Below are positions 4,862-20,051 of a stretch of 32,000 nucleotides of DNA, piece after piece (position 1 is the first letter of the stretch; every line of letters starts with the position of its first letter). Both the position numbers and the translations under genes were made by a program. The DNA is from Candidatus Arthromitus sp. SFB-mouse-Japan (lineage in GTDB: Bacteria; Bacillota; Clostridia; Clostridiales; Clostridiaceae), in contig NC_015913.1 in the NCBI RefSeq assembly GCF_000270205.1, positions 120,001-152,000 of the forward strand, in the 5' to 3' direction. The notes below the pieces were generated by a model. It had not been told where the DNA came from and did not search any database. It saw nothing but the letters and a program-made list of their open reading frames with translations.

Positions 4862-7048
4862 ATGATTATGTATGTTGCTAATAGCAGAAAAAATAAATTT
4901 TGGACTAAAGTGGAGTTAACTTGGGATGATTTTGTAGAGAATCTTAGGAAACCAATCAGAACAGATGAAACACAAGAAGAATATTTCAGTATGCCTAAGG
5001 ATAAACAAGATGATATTAAAGATGTTGGTGGGTTTGTTGGAGGTGAATTAAAAAAGGGGTTACGTAGATCAGGTAATGTAATAAACAGATGTTTATTAAC
5101 ATTAGACGCTGACTATGCAACCCAAGACTCAATAAAATATTTGGACGAATGTGCAGATTTTAGTTACTGCCTATACTCGACGCATAAGCACACGAGGGAT
5201 AATCCTCGCTACAGATTAATTATACCACTTTCTCGGCCGTGTATCACGGATGAATATGAAGCTATAGGAAGAAAAGTCGCTAGCCAATTAGGGATTGATA
5301 TGTTTGACGATACAACATATCAACCACATAGACTTATGTATTATCCGAGTGTTAGTAAAGATGGGGAGTATGTATTTAAACATAAAAACGGAACCTTTTT
5401 AGATGTAGATAAGACATTAAAATTATACGGTATTAGTTGGAAGAATAGAGCTAATTGGCCAGTATCTGACAGGGAACAAACAAAAATAAGAGTGTCTAAA
5501 AATAAGCAGCAAGACCCGCGAGAAAAAGAAGGATTAATAGGAGCTTTCTGCAGAGCTTACAACGTGCATGAGGTAATCGAAGAATATTTATCAGACGTCT
5601 ATAAAGAGTGTGGGAATGATAGATATACATATCGCAAGGGTAGTACATATGGAGGGGTGCTGGTATATGATGATGGATTATTCACATACTCAAATCATGC
5701 GACTGATCCAACATGTGGCAGATTGTGCAACGCTTTTGATTTAGTTCGTATCCATATTTTTGGACATTTGGACGAGGGATTTAAACAAACGATAAATGTA
5801 AAGTATCTGCCTTCTTTTAAAGCTATGAACTATTTGGCGTACAAAAATAAAAAAATAGACCCAAGAGAAGTAGAAAGTTTTAAAAAATACAAGGGTAAAC
5901 TTAAAAAGCGCGAGGAACATATAGCTATAAAGTATGGAGATCATGTCATGATATTCGAGGGAGCTGGTAACGGAGCATGTAACACGAAAGAATGCGGGTT
6001 TGAAGTACTTAGAAATACCGTTACTAGCTATGCAGAAAAGCATAAAAAACAAGAAAAAATAAGACCTGATGAATTATGGAAAAATGAATTAAAATACAAT
6101 AAAAAAAGAATAATTATGCATTCTATTGATAATATTGAACTTATTTTATCTAACGATAAAAATTTGAAAAATAAATTTGCGTTAGACACTTTTGATAGTA
6201 AGATTTGGGTCCATGGGGAGTTACCTTGGGATAGAAAACATAAGACTAAGAGACAATGGGAAGATTTTGACGATGCGGGATTGAGAGCGTATCTCGAAAA
6301 GAATTATGGTATAAATCACCGCAATAATACTTATGATGCGTGGGAAGTAGTTGTAAGAAAAAATAAATATAACTCAGTCGCAAAGTATTTAATATCTCTA
6401 AGGCATGATGGGATCAAGCGTTTAGATACACTGTTTATTGATTACTTGGGTGTTGAAGATAATATATATTCAAGATCCGTAACACGCAAATCACTTGTTG
6501 GGGCTGTTGCTAGAGTATTCGAGCCAGGTATAAAGTTAGATACGAGTATAGTACTGGTAGGAGACCAAGGTGTTGGTAAAAGTCAGATAATTAATAGGTT
6601 AGGTAAAGAATGGTACAGCGATAGTATAACGACACTCAAAGGTCGAGAGGCATGCGAGCAGATACAAGGCTTTTGGATTATAGAGATCGCAGAACTTGCG
6701 GCAATGGCAAGGACGGAAATAGAAACCATAAAACAATTTATGACAAAACAAGAGGACACATATAGGAGTGCATACGCACGGAATGTAAAGAGCCACAAGA
6801 GGCAGTGTATTTTTATCTGTACTACCAACAACCACGATTGTCCAAGAGATACGACAGGTAATAGAAGATTCTTGCCACTAGATGTTGATGCTAACAAAGC
6901 TACAAAGAATATATGGAGAGAATTAAACTCTTATGAAGTAGATCAAATATGGGCGGAGGCAGTGAAATATTATAAGGCTGGCGAATCATTAATATTGGAT
7001 AAAGAGGCTAATGATCTAGCAAAAGAGCAGCAAAGAGAGTCATACTAA
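4862..7048 (+). CDS. Primase-polymerase / VirE-family primase-helicase (main ORF; C-terminal part displaced by a frameshift)
   Basis: N-terminal Prim-Pol-like motifs LTLDADY and YSTHKHT..PRYRLIIPL. VirE/D5-like NTPase with Walker A VGDQGVGKSQ and Walker B-like FWIIEIAEL. RBS GAGGTG lies 8 nt upstream of the ATG. Confidence 0.85.
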   Translation: MIMYVANSRKNKFWTKVELTWDDFVENLRKPIRTDETQEEYFSMPKDKQDDIKDVGGFVGGELKKGLRRSGNVINRCLLTLDADYATQDSIKYLDECADFSYCLYSTHKHTRDNPRYRLIIPLSRPCITDEYEAIGRKVASQLGIDMFDDTTYQPHRLMYYPSVSKDGEYVFKHKNGTFLDVDKTLKLYGISWKNRANWPVSDREQTKIRVSKNKQQDPREKEGLIGAFCRAYNVHEVIEEYLSDVYKECGNDRYTYRKGSTYGGVLVYDDGLFTYSNHATDPTCGRLCNAFDLVRIHIFGHLDEGFKQTINVKYLPSFKAMNYLAYKNKKIDPREVESFKKYKGKLKKREEHIAIKYGDHVMIFEGAGNGACNTKECGFEVLRNTVTSYAEKHKKQEKIRPDELWKNELKYNKKRIIMHSIDNIELILSNDKNLKNKFALDTFDSKIWVHGELPWDRKHKTKRQWEDFDDAGLRAYLEKNYGINHRNNTYDAWEVVVRKNKYNSVAKYLISLRHDGIKRLDTLFIDYLGVEDNIYSRSVTRKSLVGAVARVFEPGIKLDTSIVLVGDQGVGKSQIINRLGKEWYSDSITTLKGREACEQIQGFWIIEIAELAAMARTEIETIKQFMTKQEDTYRSAYARNVKSHKRQCIFICTTNNHDCPRDTTGNRRFLPLDVDANKATKNIWRELNSYEVDQIWAEAVKYYKAGESLILDKEANDLAKEQQRESY

Positions 7049-7364
7049 ACACAACCCTCTTGAGGGTATTGTTAATGAGTATTTGGAAATGCCCGTACCA
7101 GATGATTGGTATGAGAAAGATACTTTTGAAAGGATCAACTATATAAGAAATGAGAAGAGAGTAGGAAAACCTAGAAACAAAATATGTGTTATTGAGGTGT
7201 GGTGCGAATTACTCGAGGGGGACAAAAAAGATTTAGATCAACGCAAAAGTCGTGAAATAACAACCCTGATACTTAAAAGCGGAGAGTGGGAGAGAGCAAG
7301 TATGATAAGAACTGGATATTTATACGGGAGACAAAGAGGATTCAAAAGGAAAAATTCATCCTAA
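7020..7364 (+). pseudogene. Displaced C-terminal segment of the VirE primase-helicase (+1 frame relative to 4862-7048)
   Basis: This frame is open from 7020 and reads ..ESHTKHNPLEGIVNEYLEMPVPDDWYEKDTFERINYI...ICVIEVWCELLEG...GEWERASMIRTGYLYGRQRGFKRK. From memory, that pattern forms the contiguous C-terminus of full-length VirE proteins. There is no convincing RBS before ATG 7089 or TTG 7083. Confidence 0.6.
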
Positions 7365-7640
7365 GTGTCAACACTTGCAACACTTGGAGCAACTGATATA
7401 TTGAAAAGTGTTGCTTCTCATAAAGCTTAAAATATAAGGCTTATAACTATATAAGCAACAATGTCAACACTTATATATATAAAAGAGTATAAATAATAAA
7501 AATATATAGATATACAGAAATATAGATATATAAAAAATATATAACTATATAGAAAAAGTGTTCCTAGTGTTGCTCTGTTGACATTAAACGCTTGAGAATA
7601 GATAATACATAGGTTTGGGAGAGCAACACTTTCAGTTGAT
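7365..7640. repeat. Iteron-like array of (T/G)CAACACTT boxes flanking a ~10% GC core; candidate origin of replication or regulator-binding array
   Basis: Direct copies at 7368-7376, 7377-7385, 7464-7472 and 7623-7631. Inverted copies AAGTGTTGC at 7406-7414 and AGTGTTGC at 7566-7573, with a partial copy at 7556-7562. The core 7473-7555 has 8 G/C in 83 nt and contains the palindrome TATAGATATA twice (7505-7514, 7521-7530). Confidence 0.55.
7578..7606 (+). promoter_or_regulatory. Sigma-A-type promoter for the VRR-NUC/SNF2 operon
   Basis: TTGACA (7578-7583), 17-nt spacer, GATAAT (7601-7606). It is bracketed by the perfect inverted pair AGTGTTGCTC (7566-7575) / GAGCAACACT (7621-7630). Confidence 0.5.
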
Positions 7641-7658
7641 AATTTTAATGGAGTTTTT

Positions 7659-7967
7659 ATGTTAGAAAAAACTATTGAGAATTACTTTAAAATCAAAATT
7701 GAATCTAATGGAGGTTTGTGTATAAAACTAAATGGGTTTGTTGGCATACCAGATAGGTTGATCCTATTACCTAGTGGTAGAATATTTTTTGTAGAATTTA
7801 AGCAAAAAGGTAAAAAACCTCGTAAGATTCAAAGTTTTATACATGATAAATTAAGGAGTTTAGGTTTTAGAGTTTATGTTATAGATAATAAGGACAAAAT
7901 AGAGGAGGTTTGCAGGGAGTGGAATTTAGACCTCACAAATACCAAGAAGAAGCAATTAACAAGATAA
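7659..7967 (+). CDS. VRR-NUC domain nuclease
   Basis: 102 aa. GIPDRLILLPSGRIFFVEFKQKGKKPRKIQ carries the D...E-x-K signature of VRR-NUC. Confidence 0.85.
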   Translation: MLEKTIENYFKIKIESNGGLCIKLNGFVGIPDRLILLPSGRIFFVEFKQKGKKPRKIQSFIHDKLRSLGFRVYVIDNKDKIEEVCREWNLDLTNTKKKQLTR

Positions 7968-13006: not shown

Positions 13007-13486
13007 TTAATCTTGTTCTTTTTTAGAGGATTTAGGTATTATTTTTAATTCACATCCTAAAATATCTATTATTTTGAGTAGAGTGTTTAATTGTGGGGAA
13101 GAACTTTTGTTTTCGATTCGGGCTATAGCTGATTGAGGTAAATTACAAGCAGTGGCTAGATCATGTTGAGTCATATTATTTGATTTTCTTTGTTGGATAA
13201 AATCGTAGATAAATTGGTTGTATGTATGGTTTGGAGAGTCTATTATAGTGCTGTTTTCATATAAGTGTTCTGGAGATATATCTAAATCGTCGTTCCACAC
13301 GACAGTACCACACTCTATTTTGGCTTTAGAAAATAGCACGGGGTTTTTTAGAGGTTCAAATATTTTTGTATCTAATAGAGGATTAAAATCAAAAATTCTT
13401 GTTGATCCGTCAGAAAAATTAAGTATTAGCCTGTAATCAGGTGTAGGTTCTACTTTTGTAACAACCCACATGGGTATATTGTTCAT
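13007..13486 (-). CDS. DUF2442 domain fused to a C-terminal XRE-type HTH
   Basis: The N-terminal VEPTPDYRLILNFSDGSTRIFDFNPLL...FEPLKNPVLFSKAKIECGTVVWNDDLDISPEHLY matches the DUF2442 pattern. The C-terminal MTQHDLATACNLPQSAIARIENKSSSPQLNTLLKIIDILG is an HTH_3. RBS AAGGAG lies 8 nt upstream of ATG 13486. Confidence 0.8.
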   Translation of the reverse strand: MNNIPMWVVTKVEPTPDYRLILNFSDGSTRIFDFNPLLDTKIFEPLKNPVLFSKAKIECGTVVWNDDLDISPEHLYENSTIIDSPNHTYNQFIYDFIQQRKSNNMTQHDLATACNLPQSAIARIENKSSSPQLNTLLKIIDILGCELKIIPKSSKKEQD

Positions 13487-13514
13487 GGCATAGACTCCTT
13501 TTTGTATTGTTTGT

Positions 13515-13547
13515 TAAATAGATCCACTATCGTAGTGGATCTATTTT
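13515..13547. repeat. 33-bp perfect palindrome (15-bp arms, 3-nt centre)
   Basis: TAAATAGATCCACTA tcg TAGTGGATCTATTTA. It spans the stop codon of the DUF4160 gene (13527-13529) and the short spacer before the DUF2442-HTH gene. Confidence 0.9.
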
Positions 13548-13781
13548 AAAATAATCTCCTTCTCTCATTAAGCTCCAATTTGCTATGAGTTCATCTTGGT
13601 GTATCTCAATCCACGCGACAATAAGTTTTTGATGCCTGGTGCTCATTTCTCCATCAGTTAATTTACCATCAAAGTTAAATACAGCTTTATAATTTTGATA
13701 CTCAGCGTGTAAATGCGGCGGATTGTGTTCATTCCAGTTCATGCGTATGATTATTCCGTAAAATGATGATATGACTGGCAT
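13527..13781 (-). CDS. DUF4160-family small protein
   Basis: From Met 13781 the ORF reads MPVISSFYGIIIRMNWNEHNPPHLHAEYQNYKAVF, the family-typical start and PPH.H motif. RBS GAGGT lies 7 nt upstream. The ORF-track extension to 13841 begins inside the -35 box of the promoter and is rejected. Confidence 0.8.
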   Translation of the reverse strand: MPVISSFYGIIIRMNWNEHNPPHLHAEYQNYKAVFNFDGKLTDGEMSTRHQKLIVAWIEIHQDELIANWSLMREGDYFKIDPLR

Positions 13782-13812
13782 TTTTGTACCTCGCTTTCGA
13801 TTTAATAATTTA

Positions 13813-13841
13813 ATTATATCAAATTCGATATAATTTGTCAA
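13813..13841 (-). promoter_or_regulatory. Consensus sigma-A/sigma-70 promoter with extended -10, driving the antisense cassette
   Basis: On the minus strand: TTGACA (13841-13836), 17-nt spacer, TGaTATAAT (-10 hexamer 13818-13813). The inverted repeat AATTATATC-N6-GATATAATT (13812-13835) overlaps the -10 and spacer. Confidence 0.7.
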
Positions 13842-13876: not shown

Positions 13877-15265
13877 TTGGACAAAAGAATTGTAGAGCTT
13901 GATATAGCAAGGTGGAGGACAAGTCTTAAACGTAAGATAATGATTGATGGAGAAAGGTATTATAGAGGAGATCATGATATTTTAAGGCGTAAGAGGACTG
14001 TCATAGGGGATAACGGAGATCTTAAAGAAGTTGATAATCTACCTAATAACCGTATTGTAGATAATCAGTATAAAAAGATGGTTAACCAGAAGGTTGATTA
14101 TTTACTTGCCAAGCCTTTAACTCTTGAATGTGACAATAAAAAATATTTAAGTTTGCTTAAAACAATTTTTAATAAACGATTTCAAAGGATTTTGAAAAAT
14201 GTTGCCGAAGATGCCCTTAATTGTGGTCTAGGTTTTTTATTTGTCTATTATGATGATCTTGGAGAGCTTAATTTTAAGAGATTTAAGCCCTATGAGGTTA
14301 TACCGCATTGGTTAGATGACGAGCATACTAAATTAGACTATTTAATTAGGTGTTTTAGCGTCGAGATTTTTGAAAATAATATGTATCGTTTAGTTGATAA
14401 AGTGGAAGTGTATTCTTCTAACGGGATTGATTATTATGAATATACAAATGGTAATTTAAAACCCGTTGAACCTTATCATAATAATTATTTTACACGAGTT
14501 GTAGATGGCGTGGAAAATCATTATACGTGGGATAAGATACCTGTCATATCTTTTAAATATAATCATAAAGAAATACCTCTTATTAAAATGGTCAAAACCC
14601 TTCAAGATGGGCTTAATCTCATCGAATCTAATTTTCAAAATCAGATGGAAGAGGACGCAAGAAATACAATCCTGATACTTAAAAATTATGATGGTGAAAA
14701 TCTAGGAGAGTTTAGACGCAACTTAGCTACTTACGGAGCTATTAAGGTTAGGACTGAGTCTGGAGCTGATGGTGGTGGAGTTGATGCCTTGCAGGTTGAA
14801 ATCAATGCAGATAATTATAGGACACTCTTAGATGTGTTTAAGAAAGCCATTATTGAGAATGCTATGGGTTATGATGCTAAAGATGAAAGACTCTCAGGTA
14901 CTCCTAATCAGATGAATATTTTATCTATGTATTCGGATATTGAATTAGATGCGAACTCTATGGAAACTGAGTTCCAAGCCTCTCTTGAAGAATTATTGTG
15001 GTTTGTTAATGTGCATTTTGGACTTAAGGGATTAGGTAATTACGATAGCAGTATAGTTGATATTATTTTTAATCGAGATATTTTAATATCTGAGAGCGAT
15101 GTAATTGATAATTGTGTTAAATCGATAGGTATTTTATCCAATGAAACTATATTATCTCAACATCCTTGGATATCTGATGTTGATTTAGAGCTTAGGAGAC
15201 TTGATGAGCAAAAACAGATGGAGTTAGATTCTTTTGGATTTGGAGAAACTCCTGAGGATGAATAA
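13877..15265 (+). CDS. Portal protein (SPP1 gp6-like)
   Basis: MIDGERYYRGDHDILRRKRTVIGDNGDLKEVDNLPNNRIVDNQYKKMVNQKVDYLLAKP matches the SPP1-type portal N-terminal signature. TTG start, with GGGAGGGA upstream. Confidence 0.92.
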   Translation: MDKRIVELDIARWRTSLKRKIMIDGERYYRGDHDILRRKRTVIGDNGDLKEVDNLPNNRIVDNQYKKMVNQKVDYLLAKPLTLECDNKKYLSLLKTIFNKRFQRILKNVAEDALNCGLGFLFVYYDDLGELNFKRFKPYEVIPHWLDDEHTKLDYLIRCFSVEIFENNMYRLVDKVEVYSSNGIDYYEYTNGNLKPVEPYHNNYFTRVVDGVENHYTWDKIPVISFKYNHKEIPLIKMVKTLQDGLNLIESNFQNQMEEDARNTILILKNYDGENLGEFRRNLATYGAIKVRTESGADGGGVDALQVEINADNYRTLLDVFKKAIIENAMGYDAKDERLSGTPNQMNILSMYSDIELDANSMETEFQASLEELLWFVNVHFGLKGLGNYDSSIVDIIFNRDILISESDVIDNCVKSIGILSNETILSQHPWISDVDLELRRLDEQKQMELDSFGFGETPEDE

Positions 15266-16841
15266 TTATTGGAAAGATAGATTTCTTTCCTTAGAAAAAG
15301 CATCCCATAAAATAGGTGTTGAAACTTATAAAGAGATAGAAATTGCATTTGATAGAGCTCAAAGAGAGATAGAAAAAGAGATTGAATCCTGGTATGGTAG
15401 ATTTGCTAAAAATAATAATATCGATATGGTTGAGGCCAAGAGAATCCTAAATACAAAAGAGCTTAAAGAACTTAAGTGGGATGTTAATGAGTACATAGCA
15501 AAGGGACGAGAAAATGCAATTAATCAGAAATGGATGAAAGAACTAGAAAACGCATCTGCTAGATTTCATATAAATCGACTTGAAGCTTTAAAACTTAGGA
15601 TGCAACAATCTGCTGAATTAGCTTTTGGCAATCAACTAGATTTAGTTGATGGCTTAGTTCATAAGGTATTTACAGAGAATTATTACCGGAGTATATTTGA
15701 AATCCAAAAAGGGTTCAATGTAGGTTTTAAGGTTTCTGAGATTGATGATAATTTACTCAATAAAATAATATCTAAACCTTGGGCTAAAGATGGTAAAACT
15801 TTTTCTGAGAGAATATGGGGATCTAAGGATAAATTAATTAATGAGCTGCATGCTGATTTAACTCAGAATGTTTTATTAGGCAAACCACCTAAGGATCTTA
15901 TAAATAATCTTGTTAAAAAATTTAATACAACTAAAGCTAACGCTAGCAGGTTGGTGATGACCGAGCTAGCGTTTTTTCATACAGTTTCGCAGAGGGATGC
16001 CTTTAAGGAGCTTGGTTCTGAGCAATATACGATACTAGCAGTACTTGATAATAAAACATCCTTAGTTTGTCAAGATTTTGATGGTAAGGTATTTGATACA
16101 AAGGATATGTCTATTGGTATAAATGCACCTCCTTTCCATCCTAATTGCAGGAGTGTAATCTTACCTTATTATGATGACGATTACGAGATTGGTGAGAGAA
16201 TAGTAAGTGGTGATGATGGTAAGTCAGTGTATTACGTGCCAGAAGATATGAATTATAAGGAATGGCATGCTAAATATGTTGATGGAGTTAGCGTTAAAGG
16301 AGTAAAGCCTCCTGAGAAGAATTATAAGACAATCTCTATTAGTGATTTAACTAGGTTCCAGGATTTAAGTAATTTGTGTTTCAAAGCGTTTATGGAAAGT
16401 GAAAAGGATACTTTACGATTTTATACAGATGATGGTTATAGTGTTATAAATGCCTCGCTTCAAAGTGGCGATATATCTGACGATATTTGGGATAAAGTTA
16501 AAAATATAGATGACTCTATAGAACGCTTTGAATTATCCGAAGATATAATAGTTTACAGGGGAACTAAGATGGATTATTATAAAGATGTTAAGGTTGGAGA
16601 TATAATTGATGCTAAAGTGTTTTATAGCACTTCGTTTTTAGAATATATAGCTCAGGATTTTGCCGATCAACTTAATAATCCAGTTATGTTAGAAATAAAG
16701 GTTCCTAGCGGCACTAAATCCCTTTACATAGGCTATAATAGTTCTGTAGGTGATGAAGCAGAATTATTACTCAGCAGGCATTTAAAATATAGAGTTTTGA
16801 AAATGGAACTTGGAAGATTATTTTTAGAAGTGGAGGAGTAG
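15258..16841 (+). CDS. Head morphogenesis protein (Mu F / SPP1 gp7 family) fused to a C-terminal ADP-ribosyltransferase (R-S-ExE, exoenzyme C3/Alt-like)
   Basis: Mu-F core: SERIWGS...RLVMTELAFFHT...LDNKTSLVCQDFDGKVF...PPFHPNCRSV. ART domain at about 16401-16838: YSVINASL, VYRG (Arg codon 16557-16559), YSTSF (S-T-S 16626-16634), DEAELLL (E-x-E 16755-16763). ATG 15258 overlaps the portal stop. Confidence 0.88.
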   Translation: MNNYWKDRFLSLEKASHKIGVETYKEIEIAFDRAQREIEKEIESWYGRFAKNNNIDMVEAKRILNTKELKELKWDVNEYIAKGRENAINQKWMKELENASARFHINRLEALKLRMQQSAELAFGNQLDLVDGLVHKVFTENYYRSIFEIQKGFNVGFKVSEIDDNLLNKIISKPWAKDGKTFSERIWGSKDKLINELHADLTQNVLLGKPPKDLINNLVKKFNTTKANASRLVMTELAFFHTVSQRDAFKELGSEQYTILAVLDNKTSLVCQDFDGKVFDTKDMSIGINAPPFHPNCRSVILPYYDDDYEIGERIVSGDDGKSVYYVPEDMNYKEWHAKYVDGVSVKGVKPPEKNYKTISISDLTRFQDLSNLCFKAFMESEKDTLRFYTDDGYSVINASLQSGDISDDIWDKVKNIDDSIERFELSEDIIVYRGTKMDYYKDVKVGDIIDAKVFYSTSFLEYIAQDFADQLNNPVMLEIKVPSGTKSLYIGYNSSVGDEAELLLSRHLKYRVLKMELGRLFLEVEE

Positions 16842-16844
16842 CAA

Positions 16845-17051
16845 ATGAGCAGAGCTTGGTTTGATATTACTGAGTATTTTAGGCAACGTGGGAAAAACTG
16901 GAGCAACTTGAATGATCAAGAGAGAGAGGTTTGGAGGGCTGCTTATAGAGAACAGTTTGGGAAAGAGTACAAACCTAGAACTCTTGCAGATCGTTGGGCT
17001 AGAGAGGATCTGACACCTACCATAATCCATAGAGAAAAGAGAGATTCGTAA
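16845..17051 (+). CDS. Hypothetical 68-aa Trp/Arg/Glu-rich protein
   Basis: The ORF begins 4 nt after the ART gene stop. Hand count gives 87 G+C in 207 nt (42%), versus 18/60 (30%) in a nearby line. No recognised domain. Confidence 0.5.
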   Translation: MSRAWFDITEYFRQRGKNWSNLNDQEREVWRAAYREQFGKEYKPRTLADRWAREDLTPTIIHREKRDS

Positions 17052-17083
17052 TATAAATATGATTGTGTATTGGGGTGGTAGTT

Positions 17084-17425
17084 TTGGCAAAAGATGATTA
17101 TTATGTGATTGTATATAAGCTTTTATCTTATTTGTATAGTTGTTTGAAAAAAGGCACATATGTAGACATTGAGAATCTAAGAGATGTTATAAAGGTAGAT
17201 ATAGTAGATTCGTATTGGAATTACATAATTCTAGAGTTATATAAAGAGGGATATATTGATGGAATTACTAAAATTAAATATATAGGTGATATCAATGAGA
17301 ATGTTAAAATTAACAAAAATATCAGAATTAAGCCTAAAGGAATTGAATTTTTAGAGAGCAATTCATTTGTTGCTAAAGCTAAAGAGTTTATAAAAGAAGC
17401 GGGGGAAATATTATTTTGGTTGTAA
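17084..17425 (+). CDS. YjcQ-family protein (winged-helix-like, function unknown)
   Basis: (M)AKDDYYVIVYKLLSYLYSCLKKG...YWNYIILELYKEGYIDGIT...IRIKPKGIEFLESNSFVAKAKEFIKE matches my recollection of phage YjcQ-family proteins. Preferred start is TTG 17084 after GGGGTGG; the ORF is open from 17063. Confidence 0.6.
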   Translation: MAKDDYYVIVYKLLSYLYSCLKKGTYVDIENLRDVIKVDIVDSYWNYIILELYKEGYIDGITKIKYIGDINENVKINKNIRIKPKGIEFLESNSFVAKAKEFIKEAGEILFWL

Positions 17426-17458
17426 ACACTACTAATTGATTCGGTAGTGTTTTAATTT
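17424..17458 (+). terminator. Hairpin terminator after the YjcQ-family gene
   Basis: AAACACTAC (17424-17432) pairs with GTAGTGTTT (17444-17452) around an 11-nt loop, followed by TTTTAATTT. Confidence 0.5.
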
Positions 17459-17485
17459 GATTAAATTGTGATATAATTATATGAT
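17457..17485 (+). promoter_or_regulatory. Candidate promoter of the Panacea-domain gene
   Basis: TTGATT (17457-17462), 17-nt spacer, TATGAT (17480-17485). An alternative extended -10, TGaTATAAT, lies at 17469-17477. Confidence 0.45.
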
Positions 17486-17510
17486 ACTTGTTTGCAGAAG
17501 GAGGTTTGTT

Positions 17511-18188
17511 ATGAGAGGTGTTATGGAGTATGCAAAGTATTTTATGCAAAAGGCTACTGGGTTAGATAATACTCTTGATGGTAATATGAAATTGCAAAAA
17601 CTCTTAACGTTTGCTAATTTAATAAATATCGCTCTAAACGATGAACCTTTATTTAGTGAGACAATGCGAGCATTTAAGAATGGATGTGTAATAGAAACTG
17701 TACGTTTAAATTACCGTGAATGCTATCAATCTTTGAAAGAGGCTAGTAAGACATTTAAACCTAATTTTTCAAATTCGGAATTTGAAATTTTAGATTTGAC
17801 TTTAGGTATATTTGATAAGCTGTCTGCAAAAGAATTATCGAATTTAAATCATGAGTTTGAGTTTTGGGAAAATGCTTATAAAAGATATAAAAGTACCAAT
17901 GATAGCGTAGACTCAAATATAAGCGAAGATGAAATAAAAAATGAACTTCATGTGATAAAATCCATTATAGATAGTTACAAGAATAGAGATAATAGTATGC
18001 TTGTAGAGAGGGTTAATGGTATTGATTTTTTTTATGATCCTAAGAATTTAGATATAGATGGATTTGTTTTTGTATCCGGAGAAGAAGTAAGCATTTTAGA
18101 TGAACTTTATGAGTTTTCTTTGTCTGAAGAGGCTGAAGATAATTGTTATACTATTTATTTAGATGAAGGGGAGCTTGTTATATTTTGA
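17511..18188 (+). CDS. Panacea (DUF4065 / GepA / SocA-like) domain protein with an unrecognised acidic C-terminal domain
   Basis: ATG 17511 lies 6 nt after AAGGAGG. The N-terminal EYAKYFMQKATGLDNTLDGNMKLQKLLTFANLINIALNDEPLFSETMRAFKNGCVIETV fits the KLQKLLYfa...lf.e.f.Aw..GPV pattern of the family. The C-terminal ~95 aa are D/E-rich with no recognised motif. Confidence 0.7.
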   Translation: MRGVMEYAKYFMQKATGLDNTLDGNMKLQKLLTFANLINIALNDEPLFSETMRAFKNGCVIETVRLNYRECYQSLKEASKTFKPNFSNSEFEILDLTLGIFDKLSAKELSNLNHEFEFWENAYKRYKSTNDSVDSNISEDEIKNELHVIKSIIDSYKNRDNSMLVERVNGIDFFYDPKNLDIDGFVFVSGEEVSILDELYEFSLSEEAEDNCYTIYLDEGELVIF

Positions 18189-18266
18189 ATTTTAAGGATG
18201 AAATATTATTAAGATTAGATCAATATGAATTAGAACAAGCTTATATTGATTTAGGTATTGATTTTT

Positions 18267-18296
18267 AAACACTGTTTATTTAGCAGTGTTTTTTTA
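18267..18296 (+). terminator. Rho-independent terminator
   Basis: AAACACTG (18267-18274) pairs with CAGTGTTT (18284-18291) around a 9-nt loop, running into a T7 tract. Confidence 0.65.
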
Positions 18297-18384
18297 TGCC
18301 TTTTTGGTATTGTAGGCGAATAAAGAACAAGACAAAAAGAACTGGACTGAACCAGGTGAAAAATGATTTTGAAAGGATTTTACT

Positions 18385-18984
18385 ATGAAGAAAGATGATT
18401 TTTTAAAATTAGGGTTAGATGACGAAATAGCGAAAAAGTGTGAGGCTGCATCGCTTGAAGAACTTAAAGAGTATATACCAAAAAGTAGGTTTGACGAAGT
18501 TAATAGTGCTAAGAAGAAATTTGAATCTGATGTAAAAGATAGAGATAAACAATTGGAGGATCTTAAGAAATCTACAGGTAATATTGAAGATCTTAAAAAG
18601 CAGATTGAATCTTTACAAAAAGAAAATAAAGAGAAGGCTGAGCATTATGAATTAGAGATGCAAAAACTTAGAGTAGATACAAAAATAGAGTCTACCTTAT
18701 CTAATTTTGGTGCGAGGAATATTAGATCTGTTAAAGCATTACTTGATGGGGTTGATAAATTTAAATTTGACAAAGATGGAAATATTGAAGGGTTAGAGGA
18801 TCAGATTAAGCAAATTAAGAAATCTGATCCTTATTTATTTGCTAATAATGATACATCGTCTGTTAAAGGTGTAAAGCCTGTCGAATCTACAGCTGAGGCT
18901 AAATCAGTTGATGTAAATAATATGACGTACTCTGAGTTAGTGTCTTATATGTCTAATAACCCAGATTTTAAACTTAATAATTAG
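18385..18984 (+). CDS. Scaffolding protein (phage GP20-like)
   Basis: MKKDDFLKLGLDDEIAKKCEAA... followed by a long coiled-coil-like K/E-rich region (DRDKQLEDLKKSTGNIEDLKKQIESLQKENKEKAE). It lies immediately upstream of the capsid gene. Confidence 0.8.
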   Translation: MKKDDFLKLGLDDEIAKKCEAASLEELKEYIPKSRFDEVNSAKKKFESDVKDRDKQLEDLKKSTGNIEDLKKQIESLQKENKEKAEHYELEMQKLRVDTKIESTLSNFGARNIRSVKALLDGVDKFKFDKDGNIEGLEDQIKQIKKSDPYLFANNDTSSVKGVKPVESTAEAKSVDVNNMTYSELVSYMSNNPDFKLNN

Positions 18985-18992
18985 GAGGTATT

Positions 18993-20051
18993 ATGAGATT
19001 TGATTCAAAACTTTTTAATCCACAAGCATTTGGTAGTTATGTAGACCGTATACCAAATGTGACTAAAAATGAATTAGCAAGGAGTGTTGCAGTTGGAACA
19101 AATGAGCAAGCAGCGAGATCATTATCCACTCAAACAGGATCTTTATATACGAGAGTACCTTATTTCGGAAGGATAAGTGCTCAAACATCTCAAAACAATG
19201 ATGGTGCTACTGATATAACATCTACAAATACATCAACTTATTCTCAGGGATTTGTTGTTGCTAGCAGGATGGATGGCTGGACAGAGCGTAGTTTTAGTAA
19301 AAATATTACTGCAGGCGTTGATTTTATGGATAACGTTGCTAAGCAAATAGCAGATTATAAAATGGAAGTTAAGCAAAATATATTGTTAGCTATGCTTAAA
19401 GGTATTTTTTCTATGTCTGTTGGTACAAGTACAATAGAGGAGCAAGCGGCTAAAGAATTTATTGAAAAGCACACTTATGATTTAAGTGCTAAAACAGGTG
19501 ATGACAGCAAGGTTAGCTCATCCACTTTAAATAAAGCTATACAGCAAGCTTGTGGAGATAATAAAAATATTTTTAAACTCGTTATTATGCATTCCGAGGT
19601 GGCAACTAACTTGGAAAACATGAAGTTACTTAAATATATGACTCAAACAGATGCTAATGGTATTGAGAGGGAACTATCTCTTGGGACTTGGAATGGTAGG
19701 ATTGTACTAATAGATGATAATATGCCAGTTGATAGTACGACTAAAAACACACCTACGTATACAACTTATGTGCTAGGTGAAGGATCTATTATTTTAGATG
19801 ATATTGGTGATGCCTTACCTTATGAAATGTATAGAGACCCTAAAACCAAGGGAGGTCAGGATACGTTATATGTTAGAGATAGATTTGTTTGTGGAGTAGA
19901 CGGGATTAGCTTTGAAAAACCAGCTACGATAACTGCATCAGCTTCTAATACCGATTTATCTACAGGAGCTAATTGGTGTGTTATAAATGATGGCGTTAAA
20001 TCTATACCGCATAAAGCTATAGCAATCGCTAGAATTTTATCTAAGGGATAA
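18993..20051 (+). CDS. Major capsid protein
   Basis: 352-aa ORF directly after the scaffold gene, with RBS AGGAGG. Size and position are typical. The family was not resolved by eye. Confidence 0.75.
   Translation: MRFDSKLFNPQAFGSYVDRIPNVTKNELARSVAVGTNEQAARSLSTQTGSLYTRVPYFGRISAQTSQNNDGATDITSTNTSTYSQGFVVASRMDGWTERSFSKNITAGVDFMDNVAKQIADYKMEVKQNILLAMLKGIFSMSVGTSTIEEQAAKEFIEKHTYDLSAKTGDDSKVSSSTLNKAIQQACGDNKNIFKLVIMHSEVATNLENMKLLKYMTQTDANGIERELSLGTWNGRIVLIDDNMPVDSTTKNTPTYTTYVLGEGSIILDDIGDALPYEMYRDPKTKGGQDTLYVRDRFVCGVDGISFEKPATITASASNTDLSTGANWCVINDGVKSIPHKAIAIARILSKG

Follow-up and report, generated by a model that had tools for sequence, protein, structure and literature searches.

The stretch analyzed here, hereafter the window, comprises 32,000 nucleotides of Candidatus Arthromitus sp. 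SFB-mouse-Japan (NC_015913.1, positions 120,001 to 152,000), a segmented filamentous bacterium (SFB) and an important immunomodulatory symbiont of the mouse gut. It holds a myovirus-type prophage with genes for terminase, SPP1-like portal, MuF, scaffold, capsid, sheath, and tube proteins. Between the MuF and YjcQ genes and the scaffold gene lies panA, which a first-pass annotation had described as an insulated antitoxin gene of the Panacea (DUF4065) type with no recognizable toxin partner. The unit was found to be complete, with a 225-aa open reading frame (ORF), a strong ribosome-binding site (RBS), flanking hairpins, and a candidate extended -10 element, and its neighbors were as described, namely YjcQ (PF09639, E = 2e-13) upstream and the scaffold protein (PF06810, E = 9e-41) downstream. 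Herein, we report evidence that this partnerless-looking Panacea antitoxin is what is left of an ordinary PanA-PanT toxin-antitoxin (TA) module after loss of the toxin.

The PanA ORF begins with MRGVMEY; an alternative upstream ATG is present at 17481, and the N-termini of the homologues favor the start at 17511. The domain proposed for PanA was recovered by a hidden Markov model search. Pfam PF13274 (SocA_Panacea) matched residues 28-119 with 42.5 bits (cut-off, 25.7; E = 1.4e-10), the alignment spanning profile positions 1-112 of 113, and phrog_1281 was matched with an E-value of 8e-41. In the AlphaFold model of PanA (predicted local distance difference test [pLDDT], 92.4), a helical Panacea domain occupies approximately residues 1-157, and in Foldseek comparisons the short phage Panacea proteins matched only the N-terminal ~145 residues, with template-modeling (TM) scores of 0.73-0.80 normalized to the target. 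The triplet G58-C59-V60 does not vary among 24 family members and corresponds to strand 58-60 in the model. Judged from position alone, it may be equivalent to the conserved G-P-V-type motif of Panacea, which Kurata et al. (2022), in the part of that paper drawn on here, place in a small beta-sheet beside the central helix.

The rest of PanA, which is acidic overall (isoelectric point [pI], 4.5), forms a C-terminal domain (C-domain). The earlier view of this region as an acidic and unassigned segment held up, with no Pfam match in 14 members at E-values up to 10 and no meaningful sequence match in the PDB; it measures ~65 aa. Structure prediction returned a confident model with the order hairpin-hairpin-helix-hairpin: a hairpin at 164-175, a clade-specific inserted hairpin at 185-194, a helix at 195-204, and a hairpin at 212-224. 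The whole PanA model had no fold match in the PDB, and the viral fold library matched its Panacea part only. By alignment, the acidic, beta-rich C-domain is conserved throughout the long-form PanA subfamily (PanA proteins of at least 200 aa). A search of 1.84 billion representatives gave 134 matches, all of them at protein C-termini, and the full-length carriers were 200-240 aa long. The C-domain was also compared by hhalign with the N-domains of MazE, AbrB, SpoVT, Kis, and ChpS; its last helix and hairpin aligned with the MazE/AbrB swapped-hairpin domain at 65% probability over 30 columns, the reference sequences being approximate, and this weak likeness to MazE/AbrB-type domains is offered as a lead only.

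The genomic context of PanA was examined in ~130 loci from IMG/VR, GTDB genomes, and GenBank phages (denoted L with a number), which were collected with PanA alone as the query. Their ORFs were screened using the window proteins together with the genes that lie 3' of three distant homologues in phages. A megablast comparison of the region with GenBank phages returned nothing, and the context came from the protein-level searches. Among the 80 long-form loci, 72 had an intact homologous gene of ~110-160 aa, here called panT, directly 3' of panA. The gene starts at most a few bases away from the panA stop codon, usually overlapping it (offset 0 or -3 in 58 cases), and accompanies long-form PanA in Clostridia, Bacilli, and phages. 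The other eight loci comprised three with truncated copies, four with no detected copy, and one in which the position lay off the contig end; three of the four loci scored as having none still hold recognizable fragments of the partner. Of the 49 short Panacea proteins lacking the C-domain, 43 had no partner gene, two ran off the contig, and four had one, although in one of these four (L007) a long form is truncated where the contig stops. The pair is not tied to one place in the phage genome: it follows the endolysin gene in phiCT19406B and in Mammaliicoccus phages, and in L005 and L007 it precedes the portal gene.

These data recast the partnerless state. The first-pass annotation was to be abandoned should homologues of PanA always stand beside a known toxin, and at 72 of 80 long-form loci, as well as in the nearest siblings of the window prophage, that is essentially where they stand. 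A survey of the genes next to the C-domain likewise yielded a MazF-fold gene (see below) and not a partnerless state. The annotation had further considered that the C-domain might itself be the regulated effector, an idea to which its lack of annotation lends itself. We consider this most improbable, since the domain was met solely at the C-terminal end of PanA proteins, nearly always beside a MazF-like toxin gene (72/80). The long-form PanA-PanT subfamily, defined by the acidic C-domain and by a MazF-fold toxin that escapes Pfam, NCBIfam, and PADLOC, occurs broadly among gut Clostridia and the phages that infect them.

A sub-clade of PanA proteins of ~170-176 aa lacks the acidic C-domain (L127, L129, L130, and L101 3337-4275) but likewise precedes a gene of the MazF-like toxin family, and L101 holds two PanA-PanT pairs 2.3 kb apart, one for each type of PanA.

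In the closest SFB relatives (PanA 99% and 86% identical), PanT is 129 aa long. A profile built from 35 PanT members matched Staphylococcus aureus MazF (4of1, 4mzm) in the PDB over nearly its full length with an E-value of 1.7e-4, followed by PemK/MoxT and Bacillus subtilis EndoA. The AlphaFold model of the 129-aa SFB protein (pLDDT, 89.9; predicted TM score, 0.85) gave only MazF, Kid, PemK, and EndoA structures among the 50 Foldseek PDB matches listed, all with a probability of 1.0 and TM scores of 0.6-0.75. Alignment pairs the invariant Arg25 with the Arg in the 'RP' motif of MazF; the invariant Ser45 lies near the catalytic Thr of MazF, yet is not aligned with it. The protein is basic (pI, 9.3). 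Searches with eight members against Pfam found no PemK or MazF match and a single below-cut-off match to DUF1093 in one member, and searches with three members against NCBIfam found no meaningful match. PADLOC had no match for PanA, PanT, YjcQ, the 68-aa ORF product (orf68), or MuF with its ADP-ribosyltransferase (ART) domain. PanT is a distinct, unannotated sequence family with a predicted MazF fold.

In the window, the place of panT is taken by the 27-codon TTG ORF that had been noticed before, and this ORF proved to be the remnant of a toxin deletion. By phmmer, it matches the 129-aa genes of L004 (E = 2e-10) and L073 (E = 3e-7). In the string TTGA, its TTG start and the stop codon of panA overlap. 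Alignment of the window DNA with L004 and L073 revealed one 306-bp gap, which preserves the reading frame and the C-terminal 22 residues, and the breakpoints were placed by blastn between L132 3899-5023 (window 17072-18196) and L132 5330-6645 (window 18197-19512). The loss of toxin codons 6-107 removed every conserved residue of PanT (G18, R25, S45, K50, E51, K53, N60, P68-P69, F75, K77, and D79). No repeat flanks the junction in the alignment. The sibling loci L004 and L132 (PanA 99% identical) and L073 (86%, a Candidatus Arthromitus metagenome-assembled genome) show the order panA, 129-aa gene, the same terminator, and scaffold gene; the intact pair occupies this slot before the scaffold gene in L132-L135, L147-L156, and L073-L074. 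On the strength of these alignments, the 27-codon ORF appears to be dead, and the window contains no functional toxin partner. The claim that panA has no partner therefore stands for the window, but not as an inherent or non-canonical property, since the siblings keep the MazF-fold gene. The coordinates of the features are compiled in Table 1.

Table 1. Features of the panA unit and of the adjacent MuF region (window coordinates)
Feature	Position	Strand	Description
panA	17511..18188	+	long-form Panacea antitoxin, 225 aa; 155 full-length homologues found
RBS GAAGGAGG	17498..17505	+	5 nt 5' of ATG 17511; invariant in L004 and L073
Terminator-like hairpin AAACACUAC...GUAGUGUUU with U-rich tail	17424..17458	+	separates the yjcQ-like gene from the panA unit
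Extended -10 element TGATATAAT, candidate panA promoter	17469..17477	+	read from the sequence
Intrinsic terminator closing the unit	18267..18298	+	scanner match, 10 pairs and T-run
SocA_Panacea-matched stretch	17592..17867	+	residues 28-119; includes invariant G58-C59-V60
PanA C-terminal domain	17988..18185	+	residues ~160-225; 18 D/E vs 2 K/R
panT remnant, 27-codon TTG ORF	18185..18268	+	toxin codons 1-5 and 108-129 of 129
Deletion junction	18196..18197	+	306 bp (102 codons, in frame) gone relative to sibling phages
MuF with C-terminal ADP-ribosyltransferase domain	15234-16841		PF03496 ADPrib_exo_Tox, E = 3e-23; two genes upstream of panA
68-aa ORF (orf68)	16845-17051		phrog_28390; directly after MuF

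The L132 locus (5330-7768), like those of L135 and L004, is a prophage cut within the major capsid gene at about codon 173; its homology to the window stops at window 19512, and beyond the cut lie AAA_21 and RloB-family genes, followed by bacterial housekeeping genes. Intact PanA-PanT has here survived in a prophage remnant, while the toxin is gone from the apparently complete prophage of the window.

The distribution of the deletion was assessed with a 25-mer spanning the junction. It was found in 11 independent loci, 10 of which encode identical PanA. The 11 are the complete genome AP012209.1, whose PanA is among the identical ones, three assemblies from single SFB cells, six Logan assemblies, and a metagenome contig, the last being the single occurrence in the JGI/ENA metagenome collection. 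The 25-mer was absent from IMG/VR. The complete genome (SFB-mouse-Japan; 130.8-143.5 kb) differs from the window at two positions in 12.7 kb. Short-read assemblies may collapse repeats, and the missing 306 bp might on that general ground be suspected to be an assembly artefact; nothing specific favors this, and the recurrence of the same junction in a finished genome, in single-cell assemblies, in independent Logan assemblies, and in a metagenome contig, together with the lack of a flanking repeat, makes the probability of an artefact negligible. No fewer than three phage backgrounds carry the deletion allele. Their portal, capsid, and sheath genes diverge by 1-2%, whereas the stretch from the MuF C-terminus up to the scaffold gene is nearly the same in all carriers, with no difference at all in panA. 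Diverged relatives all keep the toxin, and the orphan allele is limited to this one near-identical haplotype. The pattern points to a single recent deletion haplotype that has spread by descent or recombination.

Comparison of window 15234-18984 with L137 and L140 gave a mosaic picture. Against L137, this same stretch between the MuF C-terminus and the scaffold gene showed 0-3 mismatches, and the flanking genes (portal, capsid, sheath, and others) differed from those of L137 and L140 by 1-2%, mostly at synonymous sites. This uneven divergence suggests that the deletion-bearing segment has recently been spread by recombination.

The signals around panA were preserved by the deletion. The upstream hairpin (17424-17452; 10 bp) had a folding energy of -9.9 kcal/mol and a z-score of -3.2, is followed by UUUUAAUUUG, and is identical in sequence in the sibling L004; it was not called by the consensus terminator scanner because its loop of 9-11 nt is too long. 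For the panA promoter, the scan proposed TTGATT-17-TATGAT at 17457-17485, which agrees with only 9 of 12 consensus positions, and the scan was uninformative in this AT-rich region (25 matches vs 22 ± 5 in shuffled sequences). The extended -10 element TGATATAAT appears to be the better promoter candidate, and in the 86% relative L073 the string GTGATATAAT is unchanged while the remaining intergenic DNA has diverged. The stem of the downstream terminator (18267-18291), taken with its U-tract, had a folding energy of -10.8 kcal/mol and a z-score of -4.9. It aligns with, and is kept as, the terminator that follows the intact toxin gene in L004 and L073, and originally closed the panA-panT operon.

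An imperfect palindrome of 13 nt (AATTGTGATATAA / TTATATGATACTT; 17464-17489) is 77% complementary and has the candidate -10 box at its center; it might serve as an autoregulatory operator or have arisen by chance in AT-rich DNA.

Morons, such as those of HK97/HK022 and lambda, are independent promoter-gene-terminator inserts between late genes. The window unit resembles them in having a promoter-like element and a terminator and in being wedged among head genes, and the PanA-PanT pair resembles them in sitting at other positions in other phages. In SFB myovirus-type prophages, PanA-PanT would be a self-contained insert that brings along a promoter and a terminator.

The MazE-MazF, PemI-PemK, and Kis-Kid systems share with PanA-PanT the fold of the toxin, the combination of a basic toxin with an acidic antitoxin, and overlapping genes with the antitoxin first. 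They differ in that the antitoxin is of the MazE/AbrB type rather than Panacea, and PanT reaches no PemK model in Pfam. In MazE, an acidic tail contacts the basic RNA-binding face of the toxin. Given that the C-domain of PanA is strongly acidic and tightly associated with a MazF-like toxin, we suggest that it contacts the corresponding basic face of PanT. SocA-SocB of Caulobacter is a type VI TA system in which SocA acts as a ClpXP adaptor for SocB. The founding DUF4065/Panacea antitoxin is SocA, after which the Pfam family is named; however, PanA scored 18.8 bits against the NCBIfam SocA_antitoxin model NF047745 (cut-off, 190) and is no SocA equivalog, its partner is MazF-like instead of SocB, and a protease-adaptor mechanism finds no evidence in PanA.

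The closest counterparts are the PanA-PanT pairs of Kurata et al. (2022; PNAS, PMC8832971). In the part of that work drawn on here, PanA:EndoA/PemK/MazF-like pairs were validated as type II, translation-inhibiting systems, antitoxin-first was the commoner gene order, PanA was found to complex the toxin, and two PanA-neutralized toxins were MazF-like by structure prediction alone; validated PanTs came from Pseudomonas moraviensis and Bifidobacterium ruminantium. The SFB pair has the same layout, with a Panacea antitoxin first and a small, predicted MazF-like toxin directly 3' in prophages, and its toxin is likewise recognizable by structure or profile and not by the standard domain databases. 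The PanT family is likened to the validated PanTs by predicted structure and gene order, not by sequence. Two features set the window apart: its toxin is deleted, and its PanA carries the extra acidic domain of ~65 aa, whereas the same portion of the paper reports only N-terminal helix-turn-helix extensions. A PanA/MazF-like pair is, at any rate, an already known kind of TA.

We propose that PanA is the antitoxin of a type II PanA-PanT module that was recently orphaned by an in-frame deletion of the toxin gene, and we assign this reading a probability of roughly 0.8. In the intact relatives, panA and panT would be translationally coupled through the TTGA overlap, and PanA would bind the 129-aa MazF-fold toxin directly and hold it inactive, by analogy with the pairs of Kurata et al. 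(2022); the acidic C-domain of the subfamily probably adds contacts to the toxin. The 306-bp deletion would have reduced the toxin gene to a dead ORF of 27 codons, with the antitoxin intact, probably still expressed, and presumably without a current target. Since the loss of a toxin is harmless, while losing the antitoxin first is lethal, the orphan state would be the first step in ordinary TA decay. Because it represents an ordinary module with a lost toxin, panA should be scored neither as a new orphan-antitoxin system nor as a novel pairing. Its value is of another kind: the expected toxin-first order of TA decay is documented here at the resolution of a single deletion, and the intact and toxin-deleted alleles in SFB prophages form a natural near-isogenic pair that can be used to probe the roles of phage-borne TA modules.

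Toxin genes with frameshifts, truncations, or partial deletions were also seen beside intact PanA in L077, L099, L100, L101, L110, L122, and L127, which belong to unrelated genomes (Clostridia, Peptococcaceae, and others). Toxin-first decay has thus recurred independently in the PanA family.

Several points weigh against the proposed reading. The RNase activity of PanT is predicted from its fold, and not from any match in Pfam, NCBIfam, or PADLOC, while its toxicity and its neutralization by PanA binding are presumed from the pairs validated elsewhere. L127, L129, and L130 pair a 176-aa PanA that lacks the C-domain with the same toxin family, so the C-domain is not strictly required for pairing. 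The carriers of the deletion show no substitutions in panA, which leaves a decaying relic and a retained function inseparable and, for the same reason, allows no test of selection on the orphan gene. In addition, PanA is intact together with its promoter, RBS, and terminator, and the allele is common to several phage variants, which is also the picture expected of a useful orphan.

That picture leads to the principal alternative, in which the orphan PanA, driven by its own promoter, is kept because it neutralizes the near-identical PanT of sibling SFB phages or prophages, as an anti-addiction or counter-defense factor; the prophage or its host would then escape PanAT-mediated addiction, exclusion, or abortive infection. 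Orphan antitoxins are known as TA decay products, as anti-addiction modules, and as phage counter-defense antitoxins such as T4 Dmd, and the window prophage resembles their carriers in bearing an intact antitoxin gene without the cognate toxin. Phage orphan antitoxins that defeat TA defenses are documented, for example against DarTG1, T4-like phages carrying orphan DarG-like enzymes as counter-defense antitoxins (PMC11825919). A retained function would further agree with the unbroken state of the panA ORF, promoter element, RBS, and terminator, with an in-frame deletion that spares the architecture of the unit, and with the occurrence of the allele in many samples and in three or more phage backgrounds. 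Moreover, sibling phages in related samples carry PanT, and the orphan PanA, being 99% identical to their cognate PanA, should recognize it. However, the absence of panA substitutions among the carriers yields no signal of selection and fits one recent, recombining haplotype. More distant relatives all keep the toxin, and in no lineage has a long-lived orphan been found. Toxin decay beside intact PanA is sporadic, occurring in seven loci, as under neutral decay, and a role of PanAT in defense or exclusion in SFB is itself a supposition. Unlike the counter-defense orphans, the PanA of the window shows neither long-term conservation as an orphan nor a host target, and unlike orphan antitoxins in general it can be traced to one very recent deletion, with close relatives that keep the toxin. 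As for the suggestion of the first-pass annotation that an orphan antitoxin serves against a toxin-based host defense, a very recent deletion without later substitutions gives no indication of selection, and we regard a retained function as unlikely, if worth bearing in mind.

The same doubt attaches to its strongest form, in which the deletion of panT was adaptive, the expressed PanA being a stand-alone shield against the PanT of sibling SFB phages and prophage remnants and the acidic C-domain a toxin-specific plug of the MazF RNA groove. If this were true, an addiction or exclusion module would have been turned into an anti-addiction or counter-exclusion gene, and the C-domain would be a previously undescribed plug for that groove. 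The decay of an ordinary PanA-PanT module remains the reading that we prefer.

The genes upstream of panA supply further candidates for a partner. MuF, two genes upstream, carries a C-terminal ART toxin domain that the first-pass annotation had not reported. This protein corresponds to 'ADPRT Type-1' of SFB phage element 1 (Pamp et al., 2012), and the SFB ADPRT protein is also known as a MuF toxin (Jamet et al., 2017; PMC5576092). PanA could in principle be the immunity protein for this domain, in view of its position, of the need of MuF polymorphic toxins for nearby immunity genes, with a small ORF directly downstream (Jamet et al., 2017; PMC5576092), and of the many toxin folds that Panacea partners. 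Against this, L133 and L074, whose MuF C-termini are unrelated and not of the ART type, keep the same PanA and PanT; ~75 other PanA loci have neither MuF nor ART within 6 kb; and the MuF C-terminus co-varies with the small ORF downstream of it and not with PanA. We rate this explanation as very improbable, and PanA was rejected as the ART immunity protein.

The co-variation is seen most clearly in the sibling L133, whose MuF is ~97% identical to that of the window up to about residue 345 and unrelated beyond. The small ORF after MuF is exchanged together with the C-terminus: it encodes 68 or 74 aa where the ART domain is present, the 74-aa homologue of the ART-bearing L073 being 41% identical to orf68, and an unrelated 53-aa product otherwise. 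From this alternation, the MuF C-terminus and the small ORF would be exchanged as a polymorphic toxin/immunity cassette, and orf68 is likely the ART immunity protein.

A non-canonical pairing of PanA with YjcQ or with orf68, which the first-pass annotation had raised, has proximity in its favor, in the window only. The terminator-like hairpin divides yjcQ from panA, and homologues of YjcQ and orf68 are confined to SFB phage loci (2 and 1 of ~130) and missing from the other ~75, and in the SFB phages orf68 tracks the MuF C-terminus instead; no co-occurrence with PanA was found outside the SFB phages. YjcQ, orf68, MuF, and the ART domain all recur in only a few SFB phage loci, and in L074 the PanA-PanT pair is present without YjcQ. 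Such a pairing is scarcely credible, and both proteins were dismissed as partners.

The head module of the window contains one more insert. Between the terminase and portal genes, two genes lie on the minus strand (13007-13841), a 159-aa ORF at 13007-13486 and a 104-aa ORF at 13527-13841; by the Pfam labels of the identical genes of L136, they encode DUF2442 with HTH_3 and DUF4160, respectively. The insert is present in the window, L136, L138, and L139 and missing from L137, where a longer portal gene directly follows the terminase gene. It is the second accessory insert of the head module, and its two genes may represent another small TA-like pair.

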